Below, piece by piece: positions 1 through 46,159 of a stretch of DNA of 64,000 nucleotides; the first letter of the stretch is position 1; every line of letters starts with the position of its first letter. The translations under genes were made by a program, and so were the position numbers. This DNA is from Squalus acanthias (Eukaryota), in NCBI GenBank assembly GCA_030390025.1, contig JASTWF010000033.1, positions 1,428,001 to 1,492,000 of the forward strand, written 5' to 3'. The notes under the pieces are model-generated. The model searched no databases. It was not told where the DNA came from and worked only from the letters and a program-made list of their open reading frames with translations.

Positions 1-3000
1 TCAATCTCTCATCATAGGACAGCCCTCACATCCCAGGTATCAATCCAGTGAGTACAGGCCCAGCCTACTCAATCTCTCATTCATAGGACAGCCCGCTCAT
101 CCCAGGTATCAATCCAGTGAGTACAGGCCCAGCCTACTCAATCTCTCATCATAGGACAGCCCTCTCATCCCAGGTATCAATCCAGTGAGTACAGGCCCAG
201 CCTACTCAATCTCTCATCATAGGACAGCCCTCTCATCCCAGGTATCAATCCAGTGAGTACAGGCCCAGCCTACTCAATCTCTCATCATAGGACAGCCCTC
301 TCATCCCAGGTATCAATCCAGTGAGTACAGGCCCAGCCTACTCAATCTCTCATCATAGGACAGCCCGCTCATCCCAGGTATCAATCCAGTGAGTAGAGGC
401 CCAGCCTACTCAATCTCTCATCATAGGACAGCCCTCTCATCCCAGGTATCAATCCAGAGAGTACAGGCCCAGCCTACTCAATCTCTCATCATAGGACAAG
501 CCCTCTCATCCCAGGTATCAATCCAGTGAGTACAGGCCCAGCCTACTCAATCTCTCATCATAGGACAGCCCGCTCATCCCAGGTATCAATCCAGTGAGTA
601 CAGGCCCAGCCTACTCAATCTCTCATCATAGGACAGCCCTCTCATCCCAGGTATCAATCCAGTGAGTACAGGCCCAGCCTACTCAATCTCTCATCATAGG
701 ACAGCCCGCTCATCCCAGGTATCAATCCAGTGAGTACAGGCCCAGCCTACTCAATCTCTCATCATAGGACAGCCCGCTCATCCCAGGTATCAATCCAGTG
801 AGTACAGGCCCAGCCTACTCAATCTCTCATCATAGGACAGCCCGCTCATCCCAGGTATCAATCCAGTGAGTACAGGCCCAGCCTACTCAATCTCTCATCA
901 TAGGACAGCCCTCTCATCCCAGGTATCAATCCAGTGAGTACAGGCCCAGCCTACTCAATCTCTCATCATAGGACAGCCCTCTCATCCCAGGTATCAATCC
1001 AGTGAGTACAGGCCCAGCCTACTCAATCACTCATCATAGGACAGCCCTCTCATCCCAGGTATCAATCCAGTGAGTACAGGCCCAGCCTACTCAATCTCTC
1101 ATCATAGGACAGCCCTCTCATCCCAGGTATCAATCCAGTGAGTACAGGCCCAGCCTACTCAATCTCTCATCATAGGACAGCCCTCTCATCCCAGGTATCA
1201 ATCCAGTGAGTACAGGCCCAGCCTACTCAATCTCTCATCAAAGGACAGCCCTCTCATCCCAGGTATCAATCCAGTGAGTACAGGCCCAGCCTACTCAATC
1301 TCTCATCATAGGACAGCCCTCTCATCCCAGGTATCAATCCAGTGAGTACAGGCCCAGCCTACTCAATCTCTCATCATAGGACAGCCCGCTCATCCCAGGT
1401 ATCAATCCAGTGAGTAGAGGCCCAGCCTACTCAATCTCTCATCATAGACAGCTCCTCTCATCCCAGGTATCAATCCAGTGAGTACAGGCCCAGCCTACTC
1501 AATCTCTCATCATAGACAGCCCTCTCATCCCAGGTATCAATCCAGTGAGTACAGGCCCAGCCACTCAATCTCTCATCATAGGACAGCCCTCTCATCCCAG
1601 GTATCAATCCAGTGAGTACAGGCCCAGCCTACTCAATCTCTCATCATAGGACAGCCGCTCATCCCAGGTATCAATCCAGTGAGTACAGGCCCAGCCTACT
1701 CAATCTCTCATCATAGGACAGCCCTCTCATCCCAGGTATCAATCCAGTGAGTACAGGCCCAGCCTACTCAATCTCTCATCATAGGACAGCCCTCTCATCC
1801 CAGGTATCAATCCAGTGAGTACAGGCCCAGCCTACTCAATCTCTCATCATAGGACAGCCCTCTCATCCCAGGTATCAATCCAGAGAGTACAGGCCCAGCC
1901 TACTCAATCTCTCATCATAGGACAGCCCTCTCATCCCAGGTATCAATCCAGAGAGTACAGGGCCCAGCCTACTCAATCTCTCATCATAGGACAGCCCTCT
2001 CATCCCAGGTATCAATCCAGTGAGTACAGGCCCAGCCTACTCAATCTCTCATCATAGGACAGCCCGCTCATCCCAGGTATCAATCCAGTGAGTACAGGCC
2101 CAGCCTACTCAATCTCTCATCATAGGACAGCCCGCTCATCCCAGGTATCAATCCAGTGAGTACAGGCCAGCCTACTCAATCTCTCATCATAGGACAGCCC
2201 TCTCATCCAGGTATCATCCAGTGAGTACAGAGCCCAGCCTACTCCAATCTCTCATCATAGACAGCCCTCTCATCCCAGGGTATCAATCCAGTGAGTACAG
2301 GCCCAGCCTACTCAATCTCTCATCATAGGACAGCCGCTCATCCCAGGTTATCAATCCATGTGAGTAGCAGGCCCAGCCTACTCAATCTCACATTCATAGG
2401 ACAGCCCTCTCATCCAGGTATCAATCCAGTGAGTACAGGCCCCAGCCTATCAATCTCTCATCATAGGACAGGCCCGCTCATCCCAGGTATCAATCCAGTG
2501 AGTACAGGCCCAGCCTACTCAATCTCTCATCATAGGACAGCCCTCTCATCCAGGTATCAATCCAGTGAGTACAGGCCCAGCCTACTCAATCTCTCATCAT
2601 AGGACAGCCCTCTCATCCCAGGTATCAATCCAGTGAGTACAGGCCCAGCCTACTCAATCTCTCATCATAGACAGCCCTCTCATCCCAGGTATCAATCCAG
2701 TGAGTACAGGCCCAGCCTACTCAATCTCTCATCATAGGACAGCCCTCTCATCCCAGGTATCAATCCAGTGAGTACAGGCCCAGCCTACTCAATCTCTCAT
2801 CATAGGACAGCCCGCTCATCCAGGTATCAATCCAGTGAGTACAGGCCCAGCCTACTCAATCTCTCATCATAGGACAGCCTCTCATCCCAGGTATCAATCC
2901 AGAGAGTACAGGCCCAGCCTACTCAATCTCTCATCATAGGACAGCCCGCTCATCCCAGGTATCAATCCAGTGAGTAGAGGCCCAGCCTACTCAATCTCTC

Positions 3001-6000
3001 ATCATAGGACAGCCCTCTCATCCCAGGTATCAATCCAGAGAGTACAGGCCCAGCCTACTCAATCTCTCATCATAGGACAGCCCTCATCCCAGGTATCAAT
3101 CCAGTGAGTAACAGGCCCAGCCTACTCAATCTCTCATCATAGGACAGCCCGCTCATCCCAGGATCAATCCAGTGAGTACAGGCCCAGCCTACTCAATCTC
3201 TCTCATAGGACAGCCCGCTCATCCCAGGTATCAATCCAGAGAGTACAGGCCCAGCCTACTCATCTCTCATCATAGGACAGCCCGCTCATCCCAGGTATCA
3301 ATCAGTGAGTACAGGCCCAGCCTACTCAATCTCTCATACATAGGACAGCCCGCTCATCCCAGGTATCAATCGCAGTGAGTCAGGCCCAGCCTACTCAATC
3401 TCTCATCAATAGGACAGCCCTCTCATCCCAGGTATCAATCCAGTGAGTACAGGCCCCAGCCTACTCAATCTCTCATCATAGGACAGCCCTCTCATCCCAG
3501 GTATCAATCCAGAGAGTACAGGCCCCAGCCTACTCATCTCTCATCATAGGACAGCCCTCTCATCCCAGGTATCAATCCAGGAGGAGTACAGGCCCAGCCT
3601 ACTCAATCTCTCATCATAGGACAGCCCTCTCATCCCAGGTATCAATCCAGAGAGTACAGGCCCAGCCTACTCAATCTCTCATCATAGGACAGCCCTCTCA
3701 TCCCAGGTATCAATCCAGAGAGTACAGGCCCAGCCTACTCAATCTCTCATCATAGGACAGCCCTCTCATCCCAGGTATCAATCCAGAGAGTACAGGCCCA
3801 GCCTACTCAATTCTCTCATCATAGGCCAGCCCTCTCATCCAGTATCAATCCAGTGAGTACAGGCCCAGCCTACTCAATCTCTCATCATAGGACAGCCCTC
3901 TCACCCAGGTATCAATCCAGTGAGTAGAGGCCCAGCCTACATCAATCTCTCATCATAAGGACAGCCCTCTCATCCCAGGTATCAATCCAGTGAGTACAGG
4001 CCCAGCCATACTCAATCTCTCATCATAGGACAGCCCGCTCATCCCAGGTATCAATCCAGTGAGTACAGGCCCAGCCTACTCAATCTCTCATCATAGGACA
4101 GCCCTCTCATCCCAGGTATCAATCCTGTGAGTACAGGCCCAGCCTACTCAATCTCTCATCATAGGACAGCCCGCTCATCCCAGGTATCAATCCAGTGGAG
4201 TACAGGCCCAGCCTACTCAATCTCTCATCATAGGACAGCCCTCTCATCCCAGGTATCAATCCAGTGAGTAGCAGGCCCAGCCTACTCAATCTCTCATCAT
4301 AGGACCGCCCTCTCATCCCAGGTATCAATCCAGTGAGTACAGGCCCAGCCTACTCAATCTCTCATCATAGGACAGCCCTCTCATCCCAGGTATCAATCCA
4401 GAGAGTACAGGCCCAGCCTACTCAATCTCTCATCATAGGACAGCCACTCATCCCAGGTATCAATCCAGAGAGTACAGGCCCAGCCTACTCAATCTCTCAT
4501 CATAGGACAGGCCCGCTCATCCAGGTATCAATCCAGTGAGTACAGGCCCAGCCTACTCAATCTCTCTCATAGGACAGCCCTCTCATCCCAGGTATCAATC
4601 CAGTGAGTACAGGCCAGCCTACTCAATCTCTCATCATAGGACAGCCCTCTCATCCCAGGTATCAATCCAGTGAGTACAGGCCCAGCCTACTCAATCTCTC
4701 ATCATAGGGACAGCCCTCTCATCCCAGGTATCAATCCAGTGAGTACAGGCCCAGCCTACTCAATCTCTCATCATAGGACAGCCCTCTCATCCCAGGTATC
4801 AATCCAGAGAGTACAGGCCCAGCCTACTCAATCTCTCATCATAGGACAGCCCTCTCATCCCAGGTATCAATCCAGAGAGTACAGGCCCAGCCTACTCAAT
4901 CTCTCATCATAGGACAGCCCTCTCATCCAGGTATCAATCCAGTGAGTAGAGGCCCAGCCTACTCAATCTCTCATCATAGGACAGCCTCTCATCCCAGGTA
5001 TCAATCCGAGTGAGTAGAGGCCCAGCCTACTCAATCTCTCATCATAGGACAGCCCTCTCATCCCAGGTATCAATCCAGTGAGTACAGGCCCAGCCTACTC
5101 AATCTCTCATCATAGGACAGCCCGCTCATCCCAGGTATCAATCCAGTGAGTACAGGCCCAGCCTACTCAATCTCTCATCATAGGACAGCCCGCTCATCCC
5201 AGGTATCAATCCAGTGAGTACAGGCCCAGCCTACTCAATCTCTCATCATAGGACAGCCCGCTCATCCCAGGTATCAATCCAGTGAGTACAGGCCCAGCCT
5301 ACTCAATCTCTCATCATAGGACAGCCCTCTCATCCCAGGTATCAATCCAGAGAGTACAGGCCCAGCCTACTCAATCTCTCATCATAGGACAGCCCTCTCA
5401 TCCCAGGTATCAATCCAGTGAGTACAGGCCCAGCCTACTCAATCTCTATCATAGGACAGCCCTCTCATCCCAGGTATCAATCCAGTGAGTACAGGCCCAG
5501 CCTACTCAATCTCTCATCATAGGACAGCCCTCTCATCCCAGGTATCAATCCAGTGAGTACAGGCCCAGCCTACTCAATCTCTCATCATAGGACAGCCCTC
5601 TCATCCCAGGTATCAATCCAGTGAGTACAGGCCCAGCCTACTCAATCTCTCATCATAGGACAGCCCTCTCATCCCAGGTATCAATCCAGTGAGTACAGGC
5701 CCAGCCTACTCAATCTCTCATCATAGGACAGCCCTCTCATCCCAGGTATCAATCCAGTGAGTACAGGCCCAGCCTACTCAATCTCTCATCATAGGACAGC
5801 CCGCTCATCCCAGGTATCAATCCAGAGAGTACAGGCCCAGCCTACTCAATCTCTCATCATAGGACAGCCCTCTCATCCCAGGTATCAATCCAGAGAGTAC
5901 AGGCCCAGCCTACTCAATCTCTCATCATAGGACAGCCCGCTCATCCCAGGTATCAATCCAGTGAGTACAGGCCCAGCCTACTCAATCTCTCATCATAGGA

Positions 6001-9000
6001 CAGCCCGCTCATCCCAGGTATCAATCCAGTGAGTACAGGCCCAGCCTACTCAATCTCTCATCATAGGACAGCCCGCTCATCCCAGGTATCAATCCAGAGA
6101 GTAGAGGCCCAGCCTACTCAATCTCTCATCATAGGACAGCCCGCTCATCCCAGGTATCAATCCAGTGAGTACAGGCCCAGCCTACTCAATCTCTCATCAT
6201 AGGACAGCCCGCTCATCCCAGGTATCAATCCAGTGAGTACAGGCCCAGCCTACTCAATCTCTCATCATAGGACAGCCCGCTCATCCCAGGTATCAATCCA
6301 GTGAGTACAGGCCCAGCCTACTCAATCTCTCATCATAGGACAGCCCGCTCATCCCAGGTATCAATCCAGTGAGTACAGGCCCAGCCTACTCAATCTCTCA
6401 TCATAGGACAGCCCTCTCATCCCAGGTATCAATCCAGAGAGTACAGGCCCAGCCTACTCAATCTCTCATCATAGGACAGCCCTCTCATCCCAGGTATCAA
6501 TCCAGAGAGTACAGGCCCAGCCTACTCAATCTCTCATCATAGGACAGCCCCTCTCATCCCAGGTATCAATCCAGTGAGTACAGGCCCCAGCCTACTCAAT
6601 CTCTCATCATAGGACAGCCCTCTCATCCCAGGTATCAATCCAGTGAGTACAGGCCCAGCCTACTCAATCTCTCATCATAGGACAGCCCTCTCATCCCAGG
6701 TATCAATCCAGAGAGTACAGGCCCAGCCTACTCAATCTCTCATCATAGGACAGCCCTCTCATCCCAGGTATCAATCCAGTGAGTACAGGCCCAGCCTACT
6801 CAATCTCTCATCATAGGACAGCCCTCTCATCCAGGTATCAATCCAGTGAGTACAGGCCCAGCCTACTCAATCTCTCATCATAGGACAGCCCTCTCATCCC
6901 AGGTATCAATCCAGTGAGTACAGGCCCAGCCTACTCAATCTCTCATCATAGGACAGCCCTCTCATCCCAGGTATCAATCCAGTGAGTACAGGCCCAGCCT
7001 ACTCAATCTCTCATCAAGGACAGCCCTCTCATCCCAGGTATCAATCCAGTGAGTACAGGCCCAGCCTACTCAATCTCTCATCATAGGACAGCCCTCTCAT
7101 CCCAGGTATCAATCCAGTGAGTACAGGCCCAGCCTACTCAATCTCTCATCATAGGACAGCCCTCTCATCCCAGGTATCTCAATCCAGTGAGTACAGGCCC
7201 AGCCTACTCAATCTCTCATCATAGGACAGCCCGCTCATCCCAGGTATCAATCCAGTGAGTACAGGCCCAGCCTACTCAATCTCTCATCATAGGACAGCCC
7301 TCTCATCCCAGGTATCAATCAGTGAGTAGAGGCCCAGCCTACTCAATCTCTCATCATAGGACAGCCCTCTCATCCCAGGTATCAATCAGAGAGTACCAGG
7401 CCCAGCCTACTCAATCTCTCATCATAGGACAGCCCTCTCATCCCAGGTATCAATCCAGAGAGTACAGGCCCAGCCTACTCAATCTCATCATAGGACAGCC
7501 CTCTCATCCCAGGTATCAATCCAGTGAGTACAGGCCCAGCCTACTCAATCTCTCATCATAGGACAGCCCGCTCATCCCAGGTATCAATCCAGTGATTACA
7601 GGCCCAGCCTACTCAATCTCTCATCATAGGACAGCCCTCTCATCCCAGGTATCAATCCAGTGAGTACAGGCCCAGCCTACTCAATCTCTCATCATAGGAC
7701 AGCCCTCTCATCCCAGGTATCAATCCAGTGAGTACAGGCCCAGCCTACTCAATCTCTCATCATAGGACAGCCCTCTCATCCCAGGTATCAATCCAGAGAG
7801 TACAGGCCCAGCCTACTCAATCTCTCATCATAGGACAGCCCTCTCATCCCAGGTATCAATCCAGAGAGTACAGGCCCAGCCTACTCAATCTCTCATCATA
7901 GGACAGCCCTCTCATCCCAGGTATCAATCCAGAGAGTAGAGGCCCAGCCTACTCAATCTCTCATCATAGGACAGCCCTCTCATCCCAGGTATCAATCCAG
8001 AGAGTAGAGGCCCAGCCTACTCAATCTCTCATCATAGGACAGCCCTCTCATCCCAGGTATCAATCCAGTGAGTACAGGCCCAGCCTACTCAATCTCTCAT
8101 CATAGGACAGCCCGCTCATCCCAGGTATCAATCCAGTGAGTACAGGCCCAGCCTACTCAATCTCTCATCATAGGACAGCCCGCTCATCCCAGGTATCAAT
8201 CCAGTGAGTACAGGCCCAGCCTACTCAATCTCTCATCATAGGACAGCCCGCTCATCCCAGGTATCAATCCAGTGAGTACAGGCCCAGCCTACTCAATCTC
8301 TCATCATAGGACAGCCCTCTCATCCCAGGTATCAATCCAGAGAGTACAGGCCCAGCCTACTCAATCTCTTATCATAGGACAGCCCTCTCATCCCAGGTAT
8401 CAATCCAGTGAGTACAGGCCCAGCCTACTCAATCTCTTATCATAGGACAGCCCTCTCATCCCAGGTATCAATCCAGTGAGTACAGGCCCAACCTACTCAA
8501 TCTCTCATCATAGGACAGCCCTCTCATCCCAGGTATCAATCCAGAGAGTACAGGCCCAGCCTACTCAATCTCTCATCATAGGACAGCCCTCTCATCCCAG
8601 GTATCAATCCAGAGAGTACAGGCCCAGCCTACTCAATCTCTCATCATAGGACAGCCCTCTCATCCCAGTATCAATCCAGTGAGTACAGGCCCAGCCTACT
8701 CAATCTCTCATCATAGGACAGCCCGCTCATCCCAGGTATCAATCCAGTGAGTACAGGCCCAGCCTACTCAATCTCTCATCATAGGACAGCCCGCTCATCC
8801 CAGGGTATCAATCCAGAGAGTACAGGCCCAGCCTACTCAATCTCTCATCATAGGACAGCCCGCTCATCCCAGGTATCAATCCAGAGAGTACAGGCCCAGC
8901 CTACTCAATCTCTCATCATAGGACAGCCCGCTCATCCCAGGTATCAATCCAGTGAGTAGAGGCCCAGCCTACTCAATCTCTCATCATAGGACAGCCCGCT

Positions 9001-12000
9001 CATCCCAGGTATCAATCCAGAGAGTACAGGCCCAGCCTACTCAATCTCTCATCATAGGACAGCCCGCTCATCCCAGGTATCAATCCAGAGAGTAGAGGCC
9101 CAGCCTACTCAATCTCTCATCATAGGACAGCCCGCTCATCCCAGGTATCAATCCAGTGAGTACAGGCCCAGCCTACTCAATCTCTCATCATAGGACAGCC
9201 CGCTCATCCCAGGTATCAATCCAGAGAGTACAGGCCCAGCCTACTCAATCTCTCATCATAGGACAGCCCGCTCATCCCAGGTATCAATCCAGTGAGTAGA
9301 GGCCCAGCCTACTCAATCTCTCATCATAGGACAGCCCGCTCATCCCAGGTATCAATCCCGTGAGTACAGGCCCAGCCTACTCAATCTCTCATCATAGGAC
9401 AGCCCTCTCATCCCAGGTATCAATCCAGTGAGTACAGGCCCAGCCTACTCAATCTCTCATCATAGGACAGCCCTCTCATCCCAGGTATCAATCCAGAGAG
9501 TACAGGCCCAGCCTACTCAATCTCTCATCATAGGACAGCCCTCTCATCCCAGGTATCAATCCAGTGAGTACAGGCCCAGCCTACTCAATCTCTCATCATA
9601 GGACAGCCCTCTCATCCCAGGTATCAATCCGTGAGTACAGGCCCAGCCTACTCAATCTCTCATCATAGGACAGCCCTCTCATCCCAGGTATCAATCCAGA
9701 GAGTACAGGCCCAGCCTACTCAATCTCTCATCATAGGACAGCCCTCTCATCCCAGGTATCAATCCAGTGAGTACAGGCCCAGCCTACTCAATCTCTCATC
9801 ATAGGACAGCCCTCTCATCCCAGGTATCAATCCAGTGAGTACAGGGCCCAGCCTACTCAATCTCTCATCATAGGACAGCCCGCTCATCCCAGGTATCAAT
9901 CCAGTGAGTAGAGGCCCAGCCTACTCAATCTCTCATCATAGGACAGCCCTCTCATCCCAGGTATCAATCCAGAGAGTACAGGCCCAGCCTACTCAATCTC
10001 TCATCATAGGACAGCCCCGCTCATCCCAGGTATCAATCCAGTGAGTACAGGCCCAGCCTACTCAATCTCTCATCATAGGACAGCCCGCTCATCCCAGGTA
10101 TCAATCCAGAGAGTAGAGGCCCAGCCTACTCAATCTCTCATCATAGTACAGCCCTCTCATCCCAGGTATCAATCCAGTGAGTACAGGCCCAGCCTACTCA
10201 ATCTCTCATCATAGGACAGCCCGCTCATCCCAGGTATCAATCCAGTGAGTAGAGGCCCAGCCTACTCAATCTCTCATCATAGGACAGCCCGCTCATCCCA
10301 GGTATCAATCCAGTGAGTAGAGGCCCAGCCTACTCAATCTCTCATCATAGGACAGCCCGCTCATCCCAGGTATCAATCCAGAGAGTACAGGCGCAGCCTA
10401 CTCAATCTCTCATCATAGGACAGCCCGCTCATCCCAGGTATCAATCCAGTGAGTAGAGGCCCAGCCTACTCAATCTCTCATCATAGGACAGCCCGCTCAT
10501 CCCAGGTATCAATCCAGTGAGTAGAGGCCCAGCCTACTCAATCTCTCATCATAGGACAGCCCTCTCATCCCAGGTATCAATCCAGAGAGTAGAGGCCCAG
10601 CCTACTCAATCTCTCATCATAGGACAGCCCTCTCATCCCAGGTATCAATCCAGTGAGTACAGGCCCAGCCTACTCAATCTCTCATCATAGGACAGCCCGC
10701 TCATCCCAGGTATCAATCCAGTGAGTACAGGCCCAGCCTACTCAATCTCTCATCATAGGACAGCCCTCTCATCCCAGGTATCAATCCAGAGAGTAGAGGC
10801 CCAGCCTACTCAATCTCTCATCATAGGACAGCCCTCTCATCCCAGGTATCAATCCAGTGAGTACAGGCCCAGCCTACTCAATCTCTCATCATAGGACAGC
10901 CCGCTCATCCCAGGTATCAATCCAGTGAGTACAGGCCCAGCCTACTCAATCTCTCATCATAGGACAGCCCTCTCATCCCAGGTATCAATCCAGAGAGTAC
11001 AGGCCCAGCCTACTCAATCTCTCATCATAGGACAGCCCGCTCATCCCAGGTATCAATCCAGTGAGTACAGGCCCAGCCTACTCAATCTCTCATCATAGGA
11101 CAGCCCGCTCATCCCAGGTATCAATCCAGAGAGTAGAGGCCCAGCCTACTCAATCTCTCATCATAGGACAGCCCTCTCATCCCAGGTATCAATCCAGTGA
11201 GTACAGGCCCAACCTACTCAATCTCTCATCATAGGACAGCCCGCTCATCCCAGGTATCAATCCAGTGAGTAGAGGCCCAGCCTACTCAATCTCTCATCAT
11301 AGGACAGCCCGCTCATCCCAGGTATCAATCCAGTGAGTAGAGGCCCAGCCTACTCAATCTCTCATCATAGGACAGCCCGCTCATCCCAGGTATCAATCCA
11401 GAGAGTACAGGCGCAGCCTACTCAATCTCTCATCATAGGACAGCCCGCTCATCCCAGGTATCAATCCAGTGAGTAGAGGCCCAGCCTACTCAATCTCTCA
11501 TCATAGGACAGCCCGCTCATCCCAGGTATCAATCCAGTGAGTAGAGGCCCAGCCTACTCAATCTCTCATCATAGGACAGCCCTCTCATCCCAGGTATCAA
11601 TCCAGAGAGTAGAGGCCCAGCCTACTCAATCTCTCATCATAGGACAGCCCTCTCATCCCAGGTATCAATCCAGTGAGTACAGGCCCAGCCTACTCAATCT
11701 CTCATCATAGGACAGCCCGCTCATCCCAGGTATCAATCCAGTGAGTACAGGCCCAGCCTACTCAATCTCTCATCATAGGACAGCCCTCTCATCCCAGGTA
11801 TCAATCCAGAGAGTAGAGGCCCAGCCTACTCAATCTCTCATCATAGGACAGCCCTCTCATCCCAGGTATCAATCCAGTGAGTACAGGCCCAGCCTACTCA
11901 ATCTCTCATCATAGGACAGCCCGCTCATCCCAGGTATCAATCCAGTGAGTACAGGCCCAGCCTACTCAATCTCTCATCATAGGACAGCCCTCTCATCCCA

Positions 12001-13172
12001 GGTATCAATCCAGAGAGTAGAGGCCCAGCCTACTCAATCTCTCATCATAGGACAGCCCTCTCATCCCAGGTATCAATCCAGTGAGTACAGGCCCAGCCTA
12101 CTCAATCTCTCATCATAGGACAGCCCGCTCATCCCAGGTATCAATCCAGTGAGTAGAGGCCCAGCCTACTCAATCTCTCATCATAGGACAGCCCTCTCAT
12201 CCCAGGTATCAATCCAGTGAGTACAGGCCCAGCCTACTCAATCTCTCATCATAGGACAGCCCTCTCATCCCAGGTATCAATCCAGTGAGTACAGGCCCAG
12301 CCTACTCAATCTCTCATCATAGGACAGCCCTCTCATCCCAGGTATCAATCCAGAGAGTAGAGGCCCAGCCTACTCAATCTCTCATCATAGGACAGCCCTC
12401 TCATCCCAGGTATCAATCCAGAGAGTACAGGCCCAGCCTACTCAATCTCTCATCATAGGACAGCCCTCTCATCCCAGGTATCAATCCAGTGAGTACAGGC
12501 CCAGCCTACTCAATCTCTTATCATAGGACAGCCCTCTCATCCCAGGTATCAATCCAGAGAGTAGAGGCCCAGCCTACTCAATCTCTCATCATAGGACAGC
12601 CCTCTCATCCCAGGTATCAATCCAGAGAGTACAGGCCCAGCCTACTCAATCTCTCATCATAGGACAGCCCTCTCATCCCAGGTATCAATCCAGAGAGTAG
12701 AGGCCCAGCCTACTCAATCTCTCATCATAGGACAGCCCTCTCATCCCAGGTATCAATCCAGAGAGTACAGGCCCAGCCTACTCAATCTCTCATCATAGGA
12801 CAGCCCTCTCATCCCAGGTATCAATCCAGAGAGTAGAGGCCCAGCCTACTCAATCTCTCATCATAGGACAGCCCTCTCATCCCAGGTATCAATCCAGAGA
12901 GTAGAGGCCCAGCCTACTCAATCTCTCATCATAGGACAGCCCTCTCATCCCAGGTATCAATCCAGAGAGTACAGGCCCAGCCTACTCAATCTCTCATCAT
13001 AGGACAGCCCTCTCATCCCAGGTATCAATCCAGAGAGTAGAGGCCCAGCCTACTCAATCTCTCATCATAGGACAGCCCTCTCATCCCAGGTATCAATCCA
13101 GTGAGTACAGGCGCAGCCTACTCAATCTCTTATCATAGGACAGCCCTCTCATCCCAGGTATCAATCCAGTGA
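1..13172. repeat. 68-bp tandem satellite (~190+ copies) derived from the CR1 ORF2 3' region
   Basis: Monomer GAGTACAGGCCCAGCCTACTCAATCTCTCATCATAGGACAGCCCTCTCATCCCAGGTATCAATCCAGT, period 68 (e.g. starts at 1681 and 1749). The minus strand translates to TGLIPGMRGLSYDERLSRLGLYS, matching the CR1 C-terminal motif seen elsewhere in the window. Confidence 0.97.
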
Positions 13173-14340
13173 ACCTTCGTTGCACAACCTCTAAGGCAAG
13201 CATGTCCTTCCTCAGATAAGGAGACCAAAACTGTGCACAGTACTCCAGGTGTGGTGTCACTAAAGCCTTTTATTATTCAGGTAGCTCGTCACTACTCTTG
13301 GACTCCAACCCCGCTGCAATAAAGGCCAACATGCCATTTTCCTTCCAAAATGCTTGCTGTACCTGCATGCTAGCGTTCTGTGTTTCCTGTACGAGGACAC
13401 CTAAATCTCTCTAAACACCAATATGTAATAGTTGGTCACCAGTTAAAAAAAATCTGTTTTTCTATTGTTCCTACCAAAGTGAAAAACCTCACGTTTCCCT
13501 ACATTATACTCCATCTGCCATCTTATTTCCCACTCACTTAGTCTATCTATATCCCTTTGCAGATTCCTTGTGTCCTCCTCACAGCTTACTGTCCCACTTA
13601 GATTTGTATCATCAGCAAACTTGGATAGATTGCACTCGGTCCCTTCATCTATGTCATTAATATAGATTGGAAATAGCTGAGTCCCCAGATCTGATCCTTG
13701 CGGCACCCCACCAGTTACAGCCTACCAACCTGAAAAAGATCAGTTAATCCAGACTCTCTGCTTTCTGTTCATTAACCAATCCTCCATCCATGCTAATATT
13801 TTGTCCCCAACCCCATGAGCACTTATCTTGTGTAATAACCTTATATGTGGCACCTTATCAAATGCCGTTTGGAAATCCAGATATGCTGCATCCACTGGTT
13901 CCCCCATATCTACCCTGTTAGGTTCATCCTCAGAAAACTCTAATACATTTGTTGAACACGATTTCCCTTTCATACAAACATGTTCACTCTGCCTAATCAT
14001 GTTATGATTTACTAAGTGCTCTGTTACCATTTCCTTAACAATGGATTCCAGCACTTTCCCGACGACTGATGTCAGGCTAACTGACCGGCAGTTCACTGTT
14101 TTCTCTCTCGCCTTTCTTGAATAGCGGTGTTACATTTGCGACCTTCCAATCCATTGGGACCGTTCCTGAACTTAGGTAATTTTGGAAGATCAAAACCCAT
14201 TCAGATACCTCTTTTAGAACCCTAGGATATAGGACATCAGGTCCAGGGGATTTGTCGGCTTTTAGTTCCATTAGTTTCTCAATTACTTTTGCTCTGCTGA
14301 TATTAGTCACTTTAAGTTTCACACACTTATTAAACCCTTG
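13173..14340 (-). mobile_element. CR1-clade LINE, 5'-truncated ORF2 (RT) remnant and parent of the 68-bp satellite
   Basis: Broken ORFs carry KSPGPD, YLDFQTAFDKVPH, PQGS-LG-LF-IYIND and KFADDT. The sequence runs without a junction into the satellite at ...CAACGAAGGTTC|ACTGGATTGATACC (minus strand). Confidence 0.93.
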
Positions 14341-14342
14341 GT

Positions 14343-14660
14343 TCTGTCTATCTGTCCCTGGCTCTGTCTACCTGCCTGTCCCTTTGTCCGTTTGCGTCTG
14401 TCTGTATCTGTCTCTCGCTGGCTTTCGCTGTCTGTCTGTATATTTGTCTGTTCCTGTATGTCTGTATGTCTGCCTGTGTCTCTGCCTGCCTTTCTGATTG
14501 TCTCGGTCTGCCTGTCTATATGTCTCAGCCTGATTTTATCTGTCTGTCTGTCTGTGTCTCTGTCAGTCTTTCTTAGTCTGTGTCACTGTCTTACTGTCTC
14601 TGTCTGCCGGTCTACCTTGTTTGTCTGTCTGTCTGTCCGTCTCTGTCTGTCTGCCCGTAT
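14343..14660. repeat. Degenerate (TCTG)n-type microsatellite / low-complexity tract
   Basis: Run of TCTG/TGTC units between two head-to-head CR1 copies. Confidence 0.9.
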
Positions 14661-14669
14661 CTTTCTGGC

Positions 14670-17600
14670 GGTCTGCACAGAGCGGGATTAAACGGAGTGG
14701 ACTTGAACAGAGTGCGTTGTTTGGGAATTTGGAAAGAGTGGGAATTTGGAAAGAGAGGGAAGGAGTTGTTGCTTTTTGCCTAAAATACTTGTAGTGTGTG
14801 TGTTACAGGTAGATGGCTAATTGCAGAACACATAACTTAATCTAGATCAAGTAAGTATTCAGGAAACTAAACTATAAACTAAGTTACCTAAATACAAATT
14901 TAATTCAATTTAATTAAATAAATCAAGGTCATATAGGGATGGCAGTGCAGGCGGTGTACCGCAACTGCAGCTTGTGGGAGTTTGTGGAGAGCATTGTGAT
15001 CACGGACAACCACGTTTGCAGTAAGTGCCTGCATCTTGAGGAACTTCAACTCAGAGTTTTTGAGCTGGAGTCTGAGGTGCAGACATTGCGGGGCATCAGG
15101 GATGGGGAGAGTTACCTGGACAATTGGATCCGGGAGGCAGTCACACCCCTTAGGTTAGGTAGTGGTACAGGTCTGGTTAGTGGTCAGGACCAGGGAGGTG
15201 TGACTGCAACTCAGCCAGGTAAGGGGACCACAGGTGCAGTGCTGGAGGAGCCTCAGTCTTTCTACTGTCCAATAGGTATGAGGTTGTTGCTGCCTGTGTG
15301 GATGAGGGAACAGCCTGCAGGATGGGTGAGCAAGCTGACCATGGCACCATGGTGCAGGAGGCCATTCAAGTCGGGGAGTGAAAGGGAATGTAGTTGTGGT
15401 AGGGGTCAGTAAAGTGTGGGTGATAGATACAGTTCTCTGCAGCCGCGACCAAGAGTTCCTAAGTTGTGTTGCCTGTGCGCTATCAGGGTTAAAGACGTCT
15501 CCTCGCGACTGGAGGAGAACTTTTAGTGGGAGGGGAAGGATCCCGTTGTCGTGGTCCAGTTAGGAATCAATGACATAGGTAGAACTAGGAATGAGGTTCT
15601 GCTGAGGGAGTTTGAGGAGCTAGGACCAATTTAAAAATCAGAACCTCAAAGGTAATGATCTCTGGAATTTTACCTGAGCTGTGCGCAAATTGACATAGGG
15701 ACACACAGATCACAGGTTAAAATACGTGGCTCAAAGTGTGGTGTGGGAGGAAGGGGTTTCAGTTCATGGGGCACTGGCACCAGTACTGGGGAAAGGAGGA
15801 GCTGTTCTGTTGGCGAACCAAATAACTGGGGCAGTAGACAGGGCTTTAAACTAATGAAGGGGGCGGGAAGATTCAGGAAAGAGTAAATTTAAAATCAGCG
15901 AGAGAAATGTCAAGGCTCTCGTGCAGAGCAGAGTTTTGGGTAAACTAAGCAGAATGGGTCAGGAAGGGACAGAGAGAGTAACAAACGTAATAAGGCATCA
16001 GAGACTAAGGTGGCATCAGGGAAACATAGAAATAAGTCAAAGCTAAAGGCACTATATCTGAATGAGTGAAGCATTTGCAACAAAATAGATGAATTAATAG
16101 CGCATATAGACATTAAAAGGTTTGACCTAATAGCCATAACGGAGACGTGGTTGAAAAGTGGCCACAGTTGGGAACGAAATATTCCAGGATACATAACTGT
16201 TAGAAGTGATAGGCAAAATGGAAAAGGAGGAGGGCAAGCCCTGATAATAAAGGATGGGATAAAAACAGGAGAGACAAAGGATCTTAGCTACAAAATCAAG
16301 AAGTAGAATCAGTTTCGGTGGAGCTGAGAAAACGCAAGTGGCAGAACATGTTGGTGGGAGTTGTTTATAGGCTCCCAAAAAGTAATTATTATGTAGGGCA
16401 GAGTATTAATCAAGAAATTAGAGATGCATGTAACAAGGATAATATAGTAATCATGGGGGACATTAATCTACATATAGACTGGGCAAACCAAATTTACAGT
16501 AATAGTGTGGAGGACGAATTTATGCAATGTATGCCAGATATATTTCTAGATCAGTATGCTGAGGAACCAACTAGGGAACAGGCTATTTTGGATCTAGTAT
16601 TGTGCAATCAGAAAAGATTAATTAATAACTTTGTAGTAAAGGGTCCTTTAGGGAAGAGTGGCCATGATATGATAGAATTTTAGATTAAGTTTGAAAGTGA
16701 CTTGGCAAACTACGTAGGTATGAGGGACGAGTAGGCTAACGTAGATTGGAAAACTACATTAAAAGGTATGTCAGTGGACGAGCAATGGCCAGCATTTAAA
16801 TAATTAATACAACATTTACAACGAATATACATTCCTTTAAGGCACACAAACCCCACAGGAAAAGTGGTCCAACCCTGGCTAACAAGAGAAGTTAAATATA
16901 GTATTAGATCAAAGAAAGAGGCTTATAATGCTGCCAAAAATGTAGTGATACTGAGGATTGGGAGGATTTTAGAATTCAGCAAAGGAGGACCAAGAAATTG
17001 ATAAAGAAAGGGAAAATAGAATATGATGGTAAACTAGCAGAAGACATAAAACAAACTGTTAAAGCTTCCATAGGTATGTAAAAAGGAAAAGATTAGCAAA
17101 AGCAAATGTGGCTCAATTACAGGCTGAGACAGCAGAAATTATAATGGGAAATCAGGAAATGGCAAAAGAAATTGAACAAATTATTTCTGTCTGTCTTCAT
17201 GGAATAAGATAAAAGACTTCCTGGAAATAATGGACAATCAAGGGCTAGCAAGAATGAGGAACTGAAATATATTAATATTAGTAAAAAGGTAGTACTGGAG
17301 ATCTTAATGGGACTGAGAGCCGATAAATCCCCTGGACCAGATGGCCTGCATCCGAGGGTTTTCAAAGATTTGGCTATAGCGACAGTAGATGAATTGGTTA
17401 TCAGTTTCCAAAATTGCAGATTGTAGAATGATTCCCGAGGATTGGAAGTTAGTAAATGTAACCACATTATTTAAGAAAGGAGGGAGAGAGAAAACAGGGA
17501 AATGCAAATCAGTTAGCCTGACATCAGTAGCAGGGAAAATGCTAGAATCTGTTATTAGGAAAGTGGGAACAGGGCACTTAGCAAATAATAATAGGATCAG

Positions 17601-18106
17601 GCAGAGTCATAACTGATTTATGAAAGGGAAATCGTGTTTAACAAACTTTTAGACTTTTTTGAGATTGTAATAGATATGGGGAACCAGTGGATGTGGTGTA
17701 TTTGGATTTTCAGAATGCATTCGATAAAGTGCCACAGAAGAGTTTTTAAACAAAATTAGGGCTTATGGGATTCGGGGTAATATAGTAGCATGGATTGAGG
17801 ATTGGTTAACGGAGAGAAAACAGAGAGTAGGAATAAATGGGTCATTTTCGGTTTGGCACTAGTGTGGTAATGCGAGGATCAGTGCTTGGGCCTCAGCTAT
17901 TCACAATCTCCATCAATGATTTGGATGAGGGGACCAAATTTAATATATCCAAGTTTCCTGATGATACAAAGCTCGGTGGGAATGTAAGTTGTGAGAAGGA
18001 TGCAGGGAGGCTTCAAGGGAATATAGATAGGTTAAATGAATCGGCAAGAACATGGCAAATAGAGAATAATGTGGAGAAATGTGAAGTTATCCACTTTGGT
18101 AGGAAA
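14670..18106 (+). mobile_element. CR1 LINE with 5' UTR, ORF1 (Zn-finger/leucine zipper + SGNH esterase) and disrupted ORF2 (APE endonuclease + RT); 3' end missing
   Basis: ORF1 at 14939 (NCSLWEF...HVCSKCLHLEELQLRVFELE), then an esterase-like segment. EN motifs ITETW, GVVYR and PTREQAILDLVL; RT motifs [16 protein letters not shown] and KFPDDTK. Many stops and frameshifts. Confidence 0.9.
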
Positions 18107-18700
18107 TATAGAAACATACAAAATAGGAGCAGGAGTAGGCCATTCGGCCCTTCGATTCTGCTCCGTCATTCAATATAATCATGGCTGATCCTCTATCTCA
18201 ATATCACATTCCCGCTCTTTCCCCATACCCCTTGATGCCTTTTGTGTCTCGAAATCTATCTATCTCCTTCTTAAATATATTCAGTGACTTGGCCTCACAG
18301 CCTTCTGTGGGAGAGAATTCTAAAGGTTCACCACCCTCTGAGTGAAGAGATTTCTCCTCATCTCAGTCCTAAATGTCCTACCCCGTATCCTGAGAATGTG
18401 ACAACTCGTCCGAGAGCCCCCAGCCAGGTGAAACATCCTCTCTTCATTCAGTCTGTCTAGCCCTGTCAGAATTTTATACGTTTCACTGAGATCCGCTCTG
18501 ATTCTTCTAAACTCGAGAGAATGCAGGCCTAGTCGACCCAATCTCTCCTCAAACGACAGTCCTGCCATTTCAGGAATCAGTCGAGTGAACCTTAGCTGCA
18601 CTCCCTCGATGGCAAGTATATCCTTTCTGAGGTAAGGAGACCAAAACAGCACACAGTACTCCAGGTGTGGTCTCACCAAGGCCCTGTATAACTGTAGTAA
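18107..18700 (-). mobile_element. CR1 LINE 3' fragment with (TAGAAACA)-type tail
   Basis: ORF 18320-18679 reads RPHLEYCVLFWSPYLRKD...RFTRLIPEMAGLSFEERLGRLGLHSLEFRR. The 3' UTR and tail resemble those at 39548. Confidence 0.92.
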
Positions 18701-24599: not shown

Positions 24600-25115
24600 C
24601 AACACAGCACCGCAAACTGATACAGAATCTAAAAGCAATATAGTACCTAAAACTAATACAGCACTTCAAACTAATACAGCCCCTCAAACTAATACAGCCC
24701 CTCAAACTAATACAGCCCCTCACACCAATACAGCCCCTCAAACTAATACAGCCCCTCAACCTAATACAGCCCCTCAAACTAATATAGCCCCTCACACCAA
24801 TACAGCCCATCAAACTAATACAGCATCTCAAACTAATACAGCCCCTCAAACTAATACAGCCCCTCAAACTAATACAGCCCCTCAAACTAATACAGCACCT
24901 CAAACTAATACCGCCCCTCAATCTAATACAGCACCTCAAACTAATACAGCACCTCAACCTAATACCGCCCCTCAACCTAATACAGCACCTCAAACTAATA
25001 CAGCCCCTCAAACTAATACAGCATCTCAAGCTAATACAGCCACTTAAACTAATACAGCCCCTCAAACTAATACAGCCGCTTAAACTAATACAGCCCCTCA
25101 AACTGATATAGAATC
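24600..25115. repeat. 18-bp minisatellite (CTCAAACTAATACAGCCC)n, ~26 copies
   Basis: Clear 18-bp period with degenerate edges; it explains the CISLRG ORF at 24517-25182. Confidence 0.95.
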
Positions 25116-30437: not shown

Positions 30438-30487
30438 TCATGTTGGAAAATAGGTTTTTTTTCGAGAACGAAATGAAAGATCTCGCA

Positions 30488-30975
30488 ATAACAACAGAAA
30501 ACGCTGGAAAAACTCAGCAGACCAGGCAACATCCGTGGAGAGAGAAACAGAGTTAACGTTCTTGGTCGAAACCCTTCGTCGGAACTGAGAACAGAGCAGG
30601 AAATTAAACAGATAAAAATGCAAGGGGGAGGCTGGGGGGAGGAATAAAAGAACAAAAGGGGTGGTCTATGGTAAGTAGAGACATTAAGCGATGCTCAAGG
30701 CAAGACGAGATGGTAATAGGACAGGTTAAGAAACAAAAGGTGAGGTGTGAAATACTGGCAGAATGAGAGACAGCTGCCGTAGGGGAAGAGAGAGAAAAAA
30801 AATGGAAAAAGCTTATCTGTTTAATTTCCTGCTCTGTTCTCAGTTCCGAGGAAGGGTTTCGACCTGAAACGTTAACTCTGTTTCTCTCTCCACGGATGCT
30901 GCCTGGCCTGCTGAGTTTTTCCAGCGTTTTCTGTTGTTTTTTTCGGATTTCCACCATCCGCCGTATTTTGCTATC
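30488..30975. mobile_element. Non-coding Penelope-type insertion with 126-bp inverted arms and a 13-bp TSD
   Basis: Arms 30490-30615 and 30813-30938 are reverse complements. Direct repeat GAAAGATCTCGCA at 30475-30487 and 30976-30988. Each arm holds a hammerhead-like motif. Confidence 0.8.
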
Positions 30976-32268: not shown

Positions 32269-32340
32269 GGCCTCGTGGCACATTGGTAGTGCTTCTAACT
32301 CCCCATCAGAAAGCTATATGTTCAAATCACGTCGGGGTCA
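32269..32340 (+). pseudogene. tRNA-Trp relic
   Basis: GGCCTCGTGGCACATTGGTAGTGCTTCTAACTCCCCATCAGAAAGCTATATGTTCAAATCACGTCGGGGTCA is colinear with vertebrate tRNA-Trp(CCA), with many CpG-type changes. Confidence 0.82.
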
Positions 32341-35333: not shown

Positions 35334-36033
35334 ATGCCCTTTGAGAATGCTGTCCTGGTCCTCTGTGCGATTTTGTATCAGAGAATTTTGGACGCCAGGC
35401 GACAAGATAGACGGAGCAACCAAAACCGTCTCCTCCTGAGAAGGAGAAACTACTACCCAGCCCAGAGAGTGTACAGGGAGATTGAATGTCATGATACTCT
35501 GTGATGCACATCTCAGGATCCTAAATGTGAATGCAAGTAACCGGGGAAGTAATCATGACTCCTTCGTCCTCCGTAACTCAAACTTATTTGGCGCCCTCAA
35601 CGCATTGCCTCCAGGATCAGCATGGATATCAGGCGACAAGGGCTACCCGCTAAGACCATGGCTGATGACTCCCTACCGCAAGACCAATAATAAGGCTCAG
35701 GAGAGATACAAACTGGCACACGTGTCCACACGGCAAGTGGTGGAGAGGACAATCGGAGTTCTGAAATCACGCTTCCGCTGCCTGGACAGGTCAGGGGGGA
35801 CCTTGCAGTATTCTCCTCAGAAAGTGGAAAGGATTGTGGTGGCCTGTTGTGCTTTGCATAACTTTGCCCTGCGGGAAGGACTGACCCTTAACGCTGCAGA
35901 GGAACTAATGCTGAAATGGAGGACGTGGACAATGCCAATGTGCCTGTGGGAAGGCCTGATGGGGACGAGCCAAGTGCTGCTGAAAGTAAGGCTGCTCGGG
36001 AGCAGCTGGTAGCCAACACCTTCACGAGGTAGT
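35334..36033 (+). pseudogene. Harbinger (HARBI1-like) DDE transposase, internally deleted and frameshifted
   Basis: N-terminus MPFENAVL...RRRNYYPAQRVYRE is joined out of frame to LNVMILCDA...GSNHDSF...GDKGYPLRPWLMTPY...VERTIGVLKSRFRCLD...ACCALHNFA. The terminal AREQLVANTF lies in another frame. Confidence 0.9.
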
Positions 36034-39075: not shown

Positions 39076-42000
39076 TGCAGCCACACAGAAAATTAGTTCT
39101 CAGGTGACTGATGAGCCCAGTGCGGGACCTACAGTCTCTGTCACAGGTGGGGCAGACGTTGTTTGAAGGGGCGGGTGGGTGGGGTGCTTGGGTTGACGTG
39201 CGCTCCTTCCGCCGTTTGCGCTTCACTTTCGCTTGCTCCCGGCGAAGAGACTCGAGATGTTCGGTGCTTTCCCGGATGCTTCTCCTCGACTTTGTGCAGT
39301 CTTGGGCCAGGGATCCCCATGTGTCGGTGGGGATATTGCACTTTTTCAAGGAGGCGTTAAAGCGTTTCCTCAGCCCACCAATGCTCTCTTGACGGGTCGG
39401 AGGTCCGAGTACTGCGCTTGTTTTGGGAGTCTCGTATCGGGCATGAGGATATTGTGGCCCGTCCATCGGAGCTGATCGAGCGTGGTCAAAGCTTCGATGC
39501 TGGGAATGTTGGCCTGAGCGAGAACACTGACGTTGGTGCGCCTATCCTAGAAACATAGAAACATAGAAGATAGGAGCAGGAGTAGGACATTCGGCCCGTC
39601 GAGCCTGCTCCACCATTCAATGCGACCATGGCTGTATATTCAAATTCAGTACCCTGTCCCTGCTTTCTTCCCGTATCGCTTGATCACCTTAGCCTTAAGA
39701 AATATATCTAACTCCTTCTTGAATATATTTAATGAATTGGACTCAACTGTCTTCTGTGGTAGAGAATTCCACAGGTTCACCACTCTCTGGATGAAGAAAT
39801 TCCTCCTCATCTCAGTCCTAAATGGCTTACCCCTTATCCTTAGACTGTGACTCTTGGATCTGGACTCCCCCACCATCGGGAACATCCTTCCTGCATCTAG
39901 TCTGTCTAGTCCTGTTAGAATTTTATAAGTTTCAATGAGATCCCCTCTCATTCTTCTAAACTCTAGCGAACACAAGCCCAATCGACCCAATCTCTCTTTA
40001 ATCGTCATTCCTGCCATCCCAGGTGTCAGTCTGGTGAATCAATGCTGCACTCTCTCCATGGCAAGAACATCCTTCCTCAGATAAGGCGACCAAAACTGCA
40101 CACAATTCTCAAAGTGTGCTCTTACCAAGGCCCTGTACAACTGCAGCAAGACATCCTTGTTCCTGTACTCGAATCCTTTCGCTATGAAGGTCAACATATC
40201 ATTTGCCTTCTTAACCGCCTGCTGCACCTGCATGCTTACCTTCAGCGACTGGTGCACAAGGACACCCAGATCTCGTTGCACTTACCCTTTTCCCACTCTA
40301 TTGCCGTTAAGATAATAATCTGCCTTCCTGTTTTTGCCACCAAAGTGGATAACCTCGCATTTATCCTCATTATACTGCATCTGCCATGCATCTGCCCTAT
40401 CACCCAACCTGTCCAAATCATCCTGGAGTATATCTGCATCCTTCTCACAGCAGACACGCGCACCCAGCTTTGTGTCGTCTGCAAACTTCGAGATATTACA
40501 TCTAGTTCCCTCGTCTATATTATTAATATATAGCGTGAATAACTCGGGTCCTAACACTGATCCCTGCGGTACCCCACTAGTCAATGCCACTCGGAAATAG
40601 ACCCCTTTATTCCAACTCTTTTCTTCCGGTCTGCCAACCAGTTTTCTATCCAAGACAGTACCTTACCGCCAATCCCGTGAGCTTTAACTTTGCACGCTAT
40701 CTCTTATGCGGGACCTTATCGAAAGCCTTCTGAAAGTCCAAATACACCACATCCACTGGTTCTCCCTTATCTATTCTACCAGTTACATCCTCAAAAAATT
40801 CCAGTAGATTAGTCAAGCATGATTTTGTAAATGCATTTTGACTTTGTGCGATCCTGTCACTGTTTTCCAAGTGCTCTGCTATTACATCTTTTATAATGGA
40901 CTCTAGCATTTTCCCCACTGCCGATGTCAGGCTTACAGGTCTATAATTCCCTATTTTCTCTCTACCACCATTTTTAAATAGTGGGATTACTTTAGCTACC
41001 CTCCAATCCATGGGAACTGTTCCAGAGTCTATAGAATTTTGGAAGATGACCAGCAATGCATCTACTATTTCTAGGGCCACTTCCTTAAGTACACTAGGAT
41101 GTAGATTATCAGGCCCTGGGGATTTATCGATCTTCAGTCCGGTCAATTTCCCTGACACCATTACCCTACAAAAACTGATTTCATTCAGTTCCTCCCTCTC
41201 ATTAGACCCTATGTTCCCCGATATCAATGGGAGGTTACTTGTGTCCTCATTTTTGAAGACAGAATCAAAGTATGTATTTAATTGTTCTCCCATTACTTTG
41301 TTCCCCACTATAAATTCTCCTGATTCTGACCGCAAGGGACGTACGCTTGACTTCACCAATCTTTTTCCCTTCAGATATGTATAAACGCTTTTATAATCAG
41401 TTTATTTGTTCCCTGGAAGCTTCCTCTCATACTCTATTTCCCCCCTCTTAATTAAGCCCTTTATCGTCCTTTGCTGAATCCTAAACTGTTCCAATGCTCA
41501 GGTTTGTTGCTTTTCTGGCCTATTTTATGTCCTCTCTCTGGATCTTATGGTATCCCTAATCTCCCTTGTTAGCTACGGTTTAGTCACCTTATTTTTAATT
41601 TTTATGCCAAACAGGAATGAACAAATTCTGTAGTTCATCCATGCAATCTTTAAATGATTGCCATTGCCTATCCACCGTCAACCATTTAAGTAACGTTCGA
41701 TAAACCATCCTAGCTAACTCGCGCCTCATACCATCGTAGTTTCCTTTATTTAAATTCAGGGCCCTAGACTCTGAGTCAACTGCTTCACTCTTCATCTTAA
41801 ACAAGAATTCTATCATATGATGATCGCTCCTCCCCAAATGGCCTCGCACAGCATGATTGCTAATTAATCCTTTCTCATTATATAATACCCAGTCTAAGAT
41901 GACCTGGTCTCTAGTTGGCTTCTCGACATATTGGTCCAGGAAACCATCCCGTATACACTCTAGGAATTCCTCCTCCACAGTATTGTTACTAATTTGGTTA

Positions 42001-45000: not shown

Positions 45001-46015
45001 GAGGCTGAGGCTGAATAGGGCTTTCTTAGCGGGATATTTGAATGCTCCAGTATTGATTTTCCTGCGGCATTGCTTCTGTTGCCGCGCTGTTTTGGGGCTA
45101 CGTTGATGGAGATGGCAGAGCGGATTAAGCGGTGATCTGTCCAGCAGCCGTCAGCTCCTGTCATGGCGCAGATGATGCGGACATCCTTGCGGTCCCTCGC
45201 TCGGACGATGACGTAGCCCAGCAGATATCAGTGCTTAGAGCGAGGGTGTTGCCATGAAGCCTTGTACTTGTCTCTCTGACGGAACAATGTGTTGGTTATG
45301 ACAAGGCAAAGTTCTAAACATTTCGACAGGAGGAGGGTACCGATGGAGTTGGCTTTCCCTACCCCCTCTCTGCCGATCACACCACCCAGAGTTCTGTGTC
45401 CTTTCAACTCTGTCGTTAAAATCGCCAAGGAGGATCAGCTTGTCGCCCGTTGGGACTCGGGACAGGGATTGTACGAGGCTGCAGTATAATTCCTCTTTGG
45501 TCTCGTCTGTAGCTTCCAGTGTTGGGCGTATAAACTGATGACTTTAGCACACTGGTTCCGGGTTAGGTTGAGCCGAAGAGTCACGAGGGGAGTCTCTGAG
45601 ACGTCCAAGTAGTTATTTTTTTAAGTCGAAGACTACCCCATGGAGGCGGCGTTCTACTTCAGGTTTGCCTTTCCAGAAGAGGGTGTAACCACCACCTTGC
45701 TCCTTGAGCTGGCCTTCCCCTGCCTGCCAGGTCTCGCTTTGGGCAACGATGTCTATGTCAAAACGTCTGCGCTCCCGGGCAACGATAGCAGTACGGCGTT
45801 CCGGTCTGTCACTGTTGAGCTTGTACATGAGGGTCCTGATGTTCCAGATCCTAAACTTAATTTTAAAGGGTGGAAGGTGCCTGTGCGCGAATTCTTTTAA
45901 CGTGGGGTGGCCGTTGCATATCAGCTACCACAAGGGCTTGACAGACCAAAGTCTTGGTCCAATGCCAAGGGGATCCAGACGATTGGAGACCAGGCTCTGC
46001 TACATCGGCCTAGCA
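39076..46015 (-). mobile_element. RTE-clade LINE, near full length, split by a CR1; RTE parts are 46015-43161 and 39547-39076
   Basis: EN WNIRTL...ERRTAIVARE...DIDIVAQSET; RT ESQCGFRPLRGTMDMIF, GVNQGCVIAPTLFSI, LHYAED and LLYASETWT; C-terminal CPTCDRDCRSRTGLISHLRT. Confidence 0.9.
39548..43160 (-). mobile_element. CR1 LINE (esterase, EN, RT, 3' UTR, (TAGAAACA)n tail) inserted in the RTE
   Basis: Long ORFs 41595-42428 (EN), 40697-41359 and 40282-40653 (RT); tail TAGAAACATAGAAACATAGAA at 39548. Confidence 0.94.
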
Positions 46016-46159
46016 CACACACACACTCACATACTCCTACTGTCCTCCTCCCTCCTTCCCGCAGGTCCTCTCTGCCTTGGTTTCATAGGCTGTAGTATGG
46101 AACTCCCGAACCCGCTGCTGGTCCACGTTGCGCCACTCCTGGACCTCGAACTCGCTGCA

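Follow-up and report, generated by a model that had tools for sequence, protein, structure and literature searches.

A 68-bp tandem array in the Squalus acanthias genome, most likely born in place from the ORF2 of a decayed CR1-type LINE

Among the tandem repeats that derive from retroposons, the SINE-derived satellites of squamates (sSats) mostly have their parent on one side only and reach 320 to more than 1,200 units, and the snake sSat3 has a 67-nt unit that is common to up to thousands of loci (accessible text of Vassetzky et al., 2023, PMC10702118). Other satellites are related to LINE ORF2, such as chicken HinfI/SCR1 (CR1), Phodopus PROsat (L1) and seal Pvc 20 (L1), and the chicken centromeric repeats Cen2,3,4,7,11 are related to CR1-C (accessible parts of PMC9659126 and PMC6947457). 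LINE untranslated regions are also named amongst the sources of satellites in the available part of a 2025 review (PMC12628747). Minisatellites can be seeded by flanking repeats of 5-10 bp (Haber and Louis, 1998, as cited in the accessible part of PMC6947457, where Alu-, B1- and MaLR-derived minisatellites are on record as well). In the available sections of two shark genome papers, one of them PMC10620051, simple tandem repeats are described as abundant and their origin is not traced; the latter paper assigns them a large share of the small chromosomes, again with the origin untraced there. The accessible portions of PMC8854603 and PMC9974502 yielded no CR1-derived arrays, and a literature search with incomplete coverage of subscription journals, supplements left out, returned no LINE-derived tandem array in cartilaginous fish.

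Here we describe an array of 68-bp units in a stretch of 64,000 nucleotides of the Squalus acanthias genome, all of which was analysed (the window). As in sSat3, the unit, 68 bp against 67 nt in sSat3, comes from within a retroposon, and the array comprises hundreds of units; as in the sSats generally, the parent runs on from the terminal unit on one side, and the long array is homogeneous with alternating subvariants (compared with the accessible text of PMC10702118). Unlike in the sSats, the donor is LINE protein-coding sequence and not a SINE, and the host is a cartilaginous fish and not a reptile. Judged from its sequence, the array behaves like an sSat without belonging to that class, since its unit stems from LINE ORF2 rather than from a SINE. 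With HinfI, PROsat, Pvc 20 and Cen2,3,4,7,11, as described in the accessible parts of their sources, it has in common that a tandem repeat contains LINE ORF2 sequence, that of CR1 included; in HinfI and PROsat the LINE forms part of the repeat, whereas here the whole unit is ORF2, no foreign base is present and the donor is adjacent. It resembles the seeded minisatellites in having a short direct repeat at the unit ends and in its probable growth by slippage, conversion or unequal crossing-over, but differs from them in exceeding 13 kb and in that the arms of its imperfect repeat have seemingly been kept as alleles, a feature without match in the accessible part of PMC6947457. Satellites derived from LINE ORF2 are known, as is the route of repeat birth, and the locus is a clean example that involves no new mechanism. 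What appears to be new are breakpoints that lie in an 8-bp near-perfect repeat, both arms of which seemingly survive at unit position 2.

The array and its parent LINE

The tandem repeat finder TRF describes a 13-kb array at 1-13172 with a 68-bp period, 193.8 copies and 97% matches. Split on the minus strand, it yields 193 full units, with 50 nt left over at the left window edge; the unit count agrees with the amplification of about 190-fold or more proposed in an initial annotation of this DNA. The array and its immediate surroundings consist of the following features:

1 to 13171, minus strand: tandem array of 193 full 68-bp units and a 50-nt part, continuing beyond the left window edge
13104 to 13171, minus strand: unit 1, the ORF2 segment at its native site, bearing the minor variants 41A (13131) and 59C (13113)
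13172 to 14340, minus strand: parent CR1-type LINE, 5'-truncated and decayed, reverse-transcriptase region, ORF2 residues ~434-830, with 5 stops and 2 frame changes
14428 to 14667, no strand assigned: degenerate CTGT-type simple repeat near the truncated 5' end of the parent

Translated on the minus strand, the unit gives the very peptide named in the initial annotation, and it aligns to residues ~829-852 of P0003, a 958-aa ORF2 protein with endonuclease and reverse transcriptase. Both results bear out the earlier claim that the monomer is a segment of a CR1-type ORF2, and they support a derivation of the unit from the C-terminal part of ORF2 of a CR1-type LINE. Residues 434-~830 of P0003 are covered by the parent (13172-14340), which also matches the reverse-transcriptase profile PF00078 at 13740-14129 (6.8e-09). 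Its 5' truncation point lies near 14340, and it lacks the N-terminal APE endonuclease that is present in the close relatives P0003 and P0006 (PF14529, PF03372). The parent is ~60% identical to intact ORF2 proteins, and 24-28% of its conserved residues are changed. A protein search against representative proteins returned distant relatives only; the nearest named relatives of the parent protein come from shark, ray and chimaera, followed by bird and turtle (~47% to P0008). In view of the bird and turtle relatives we provisionally call the element CR1-type, rather than L2 or Jockey; none of the relatives is named CR1 by its source.

Parent and unit 1 form a single unbroken stretch in the tblastn alignment with P0003, and when the DNA is aligned with the two further CR1 copies in the window that span this segment, the join is likewise free of gaps and foreign bases. 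The array thus meets the minus-strand CR1 at 13172 in register, as had been claimed, with the parent LINE running on past the terminal unit on one side. A seamless one-sided join is insufficient to prove that the array was born here, because this is the usual form of SINE-derived satellites that occupy many loci (accessible text of PMC10702118).

The region is LINE-dense, and tandem repeat makes up half of the window. Across the CTGT-type repeat, the truncated 5' end of the parent is faced by the 5' end of a plus-strand CR1-type LINE (14341-18114), the 3' end of which is cut short near 18114. A decayed LINE of another kind, which we take to be RTE-like, occupies 42765-45924 and carries a reverse transcriptase (PF00078); it adjoins the 5' part of a minus-strand CR1-type copy (39550-43100), with which it shares a fused reading frame at 42765-43412. 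A transposase fragment at 35440-36012 (DDE_Tnp_4, 6.3e-32) is presumably of the Harbinger/PIF type, a tRNA-like match at 32269-32340 (43 bits) is probably the head of a SINE, and an inverted pair at 30487-30941 (129 bp, 94.6% identity, ~200 bp apart) consists of two young facing copies of a short element. An 18-bp minisatellite with 25.7 copies and diverged edge units is located at 24646-25108. A second long array, built from at least 940 copies of a 19-bp unit with 85% matches, extends from 46136 to 64000 and past the right window edge; at 46136 its diverged first units pass gradually into unique sequence, as if it had likewise grown from its flank, and a 45-aa frame at this edge (46040-46174, minus strand) has no Pfam or convincing PDB match.

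The 68-bp array has no evident function and resembles neutral repeat DNA in its LINE-dense, repeat-rich setting. Its longest stop-free frame, of 113 aa, falls into the noisy part of the array discussed below, there are no Rfam matches within it, and no gene model from its antisense frame was present among 120 candidates, which is weak evidence.

Variation and growth of the array

Arranged head to tail over at least 13.2 kb, the units form a long and homogeneous array, which is one of the traits of satellite DNA, with 1.4% substitutions from the array consensus and 2.1% pairwise. Set against the stops, frame changes and altered residues of the parent, these values agree with the initial annotation, which had described the array as more homogeneous than its decayed parent, and they support its proposal that amplification or homogenisation came after insertion. 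Nearly all variation between units is accounted for by three sites, namely position 2 (A in 134/193, T in 58/193), position 25 (A in 121 and C in 67 of the 193 units) and position 64 (G in 157, C in 36 of 193), and all eight combinations of these common substitutions are present. C at position 64 declines from 28/74 indel-free units near the parent to 3/64 farther out (p 1e-6), which reflects either a polarised array or a distal consensus smoothed by polishing.

Between unit 1 and the array consensus there are differences at 2/68 sites. The variants 41A and 59C occur together in unit 1 only and singly in 3 and 2 other units, respectively, and at these positions the array majority keeps the residues of the family (Glu in 16/18 and Gly in 17/18 relatives). 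Because the two variants are joined at the edge and found singly elsewhere, unit 1 thus lags behind in homogenisation yet still exchanges with the interior. Two further features concern the interior:

10248 to 12015, minus strand: higher-order duplication, units 18-28 (11268-12015) equal to units 33-43 (10248-10995), period 15 units or 1020 bp
1 to 10043, no strand assigned: distal array, units 47-193, with all 89 indel events and probably lower sequencing accuracy

At a lag of 15 units, 11 consecutive units are identical, compared with a maximum run of 6 in 200 shuffles, and units 1-60 show a 3-unit rhythm (lag-3 z 6.6). The identical block and the rhythm indicate that the array grew in steps of several units, presumably by unequal exchange or long slippage. 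Hairpin-driven instability was considered as well and rejected, as the dimer folds no better than its shuffles (z 0.01 and -0.59).

The 89 indel events, mostly private and of 53 kinds, are confined to units 47-193 and absent from units 1-46, and 55 of the 89 sit beside the same base. They look like read error in thin or unpolished long-read data, which makes the sequence and length of 1-10043 less reliable, and the true length may differ. Such data would also suit the view that the whole array is an artefact of assembly or reads, as would the fact that the tandem junction occurs in no contig listed. We consider this view highly improbable: the eight substitution combinations, the 3-unit rhythm and the exact 11-unit duplication are found in the indel-free part and are unlike read errors, and the patterned variation of units 1-46 would be hard to produce by error. 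An error is far more probable in the length of the array than in its existence.

The sequencing runs bear on the junctions as follows. Sequence words of 12900-14340 occur partly in 20 of the 23 runs listed, and half or more of them in none; shares of 0.05-0.16 in runs of other organisms are no proof of the array there, and RNA runs with such words are absent from those listed. Four of the 23 runs were compared with the stretch, all as contigs. Among the joints and pieces listed, no contig bridges the junction of parent and array or of two units, and the 15 joints listed, out of 84, contain no go-back joint at a unit boundary. In all four runs the summed depth of the bin with the first junction is 1-6% of that of the next bin, run X1 showing no excess, although this depth does not equal copy number. 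Metagenome contigs gave 0 matches to the junction motif, and in none of 80 CR1-like metagenome loci, with 34-55% protein identity to P0008, was a 68-bp tandem found.

A short direct repeat at the breakpoints

The unit is bounded by a short direct repeat, the upstream arm of which is located in the parent:

13165 to 13172, minus strand: upstream arm of an 8-bp imperfect direct repeat, TCACTGGA, the second arm lying 68 bp away

The downstream arm, TCTCTGGA, was taken from sister copies and from the starts of 58/193 units. In runs X5 and X7, with loose ends at 13118, sister copies read past the last bases of the unit into the downstream arm and the continuation predicted by the initial annotation. 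TCACTGGA and TCTCTGGA agree in 7/8 bases; with the family base at 13167 there are 2 mismatches. In order to estimate how often such a match arises by chance, 200,000 random duplications of 20-200 bp were drawn in the parent, and the 8-mers at the breakpoints matched with at most 1 mismatch in 0.3% and with at most 2 mismatches in 2.7% of draws. With the downstream arm from the sister copies, the founder unit therefore has at its ends a repeat within the 5-10 bp range of minisatellite seeding.

The sole mismatch between the arms is unit position 2, and the A/T polymorphism of the array at this position matches the bases by which the arms differ. The downstream base, T, occurs more often near the parent (33/74 versus 16/64 indel-free units, p 0.02), a gradient that could in part be due to consensus polishing in the noisy distal part and to that extent weakens the argument for a birth in place. 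Both arms appear to persist in the array as A/T alleles, with plain point mutation as the alternative.

Position 5 of the unit (13167) is G in unit 1 and in 190/193 units and yields Gly, at a site that is Arg in 18/18 aligned ORF2 proteins; in the contigs of the four runs a base other than G makes up 79-94% of the depth at 13167. The simplest order of events is that A>G arose first in the dead copy and was then amplified. The G could instead stem from the downstream arm, without any prior mutation, in which case it would not speak for a birth in place.

Origin of the array and its meaning

We consider it most likely that the array was born in place, by a duplication seeded by the short repeat in a dead LINE copy, with subsequent expansion and homogenisation; this reading is built on the sequence of the locus and on comparison with its relatives. 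A CR1-type LINE would have inserted here in 5'-truncated form and started to decay, the decay being visible in the sequence. A>G at 13167, turning the invariant Arg codon into Gly, would have made the perfect core of the repeat 5 bp long instead of 2 bp, a change that may have made this copy prone to duplication. The near-identical 8-mers, 68 bp apart and close to the end of ORF2, would then have misaligned in replication or repair, presumably by slippage, so that 68 bp were duplicated. Through unequal exchange or slippage, several units at a time, the dimer would have reached 193 units or more, in line with the 3- and 15-unit steps that are seen, and the array would have been homogenised with its edge unit lagging behind.

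A different origin is suggested by the snake sSat3: the first duplication would have taken place in another CR1 copy and spread along with the adjoining sequence, either through copying in trans or through exchange between the ends of chromosomes, each locus then expanding by itself. In the accessible text of PMC10702118 a single 67-nt unit is present at up to thousands of loci, the parent usually attached on one side, and one-sided attachment as observed here is consequently compatible with a dispersed family. We compared the conserved residues of unit and parent using 26 proteins, of which 16 cleared a 52% identity threshold for one parent segment and 18 for the other. The majority unit has 1/15 to 2/18 conserved residues changed, against 24-28% in the parent, a difference that is not significant (Fisher p 0.08-0.20). 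A less decayed majority unit, closer to the family than its parent, is what a younger donor from outside would give; at the DNA level, comparison with two distant copies from the window gives the opposite picture, with 12/52 differences in unit 1 and 12/80 in the adjacent parent. In addition, the array ends beyond the left window edge and the 3' part of the LINE lies outside the window, so that the attachment can be followed on one side.

Sequencing depth speaks to the same question. Three X1 contigs equal parts of the parent without a difference, one of them extending past 14340; their depth is 13-15, and of the five further X1 pieces listed, three are similar (10.8-13.6). This depth fits a single-copy parent, and X1 may be the source sample. 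A recent copying of parent and array together would hardly leave such single-copy-like depth, which is still compatible with an older spread. In X5, which has the same species label and comes from another study (55% of data), none of the 8 listed pieces is identical to the parent and the last bin is uncovered, a hole that proves nothing. Overall, we regard the dispersed origin as unlikely, though as the foremost rival to a birth in place.

Still less probable is that an array born elsewhere entered the present CR1 copy by ectopic recombination within the 68 bp common to both, an event that would also be seamless. Partners for it are plentiful (14,287-34,847 sister-copy contigs on the stretch per run), and two variants seldom seen in the array are present in unit 1. 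The longest listed sister pieces, on the other hand, are ~8-10% off the parent, so that a hybrid unit 1 would be expected to diverge further than it does; with 2/68 differences and the shared position 5, the crossover would have to lie in the first few bases unless homogenisation erased its traces.

In itself the array is one more case of a known kind. Where satellites come from is usually deduced from a vague resemblance to transposons. At this locus one can read the donor, the precise breakpoints and, probably, both arms of the repeat, and the short-direct-repeat model therefore becomes testable at the level of single bases. It is conceivable, if somewhat doubtful, that shark-type genomes repeatedly turn LINE coding sequence into arrays of tens of kilobases, from different short segments of ORF2, bounded by short direct repeats and with the donor still attached. 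If such conversion were recurrent, satellite births would be available as a natural series, with seed, donor and age legible in every array, and the copy that expands would be predictable from private mutations improving its short repeat. Were such arrays common in the genome, they would form a dated series for array growth and homogenisation, and they would help to explain the share of tandem repeats in the small chromosomes of sharks (as described in the available sections of PMC10620051).
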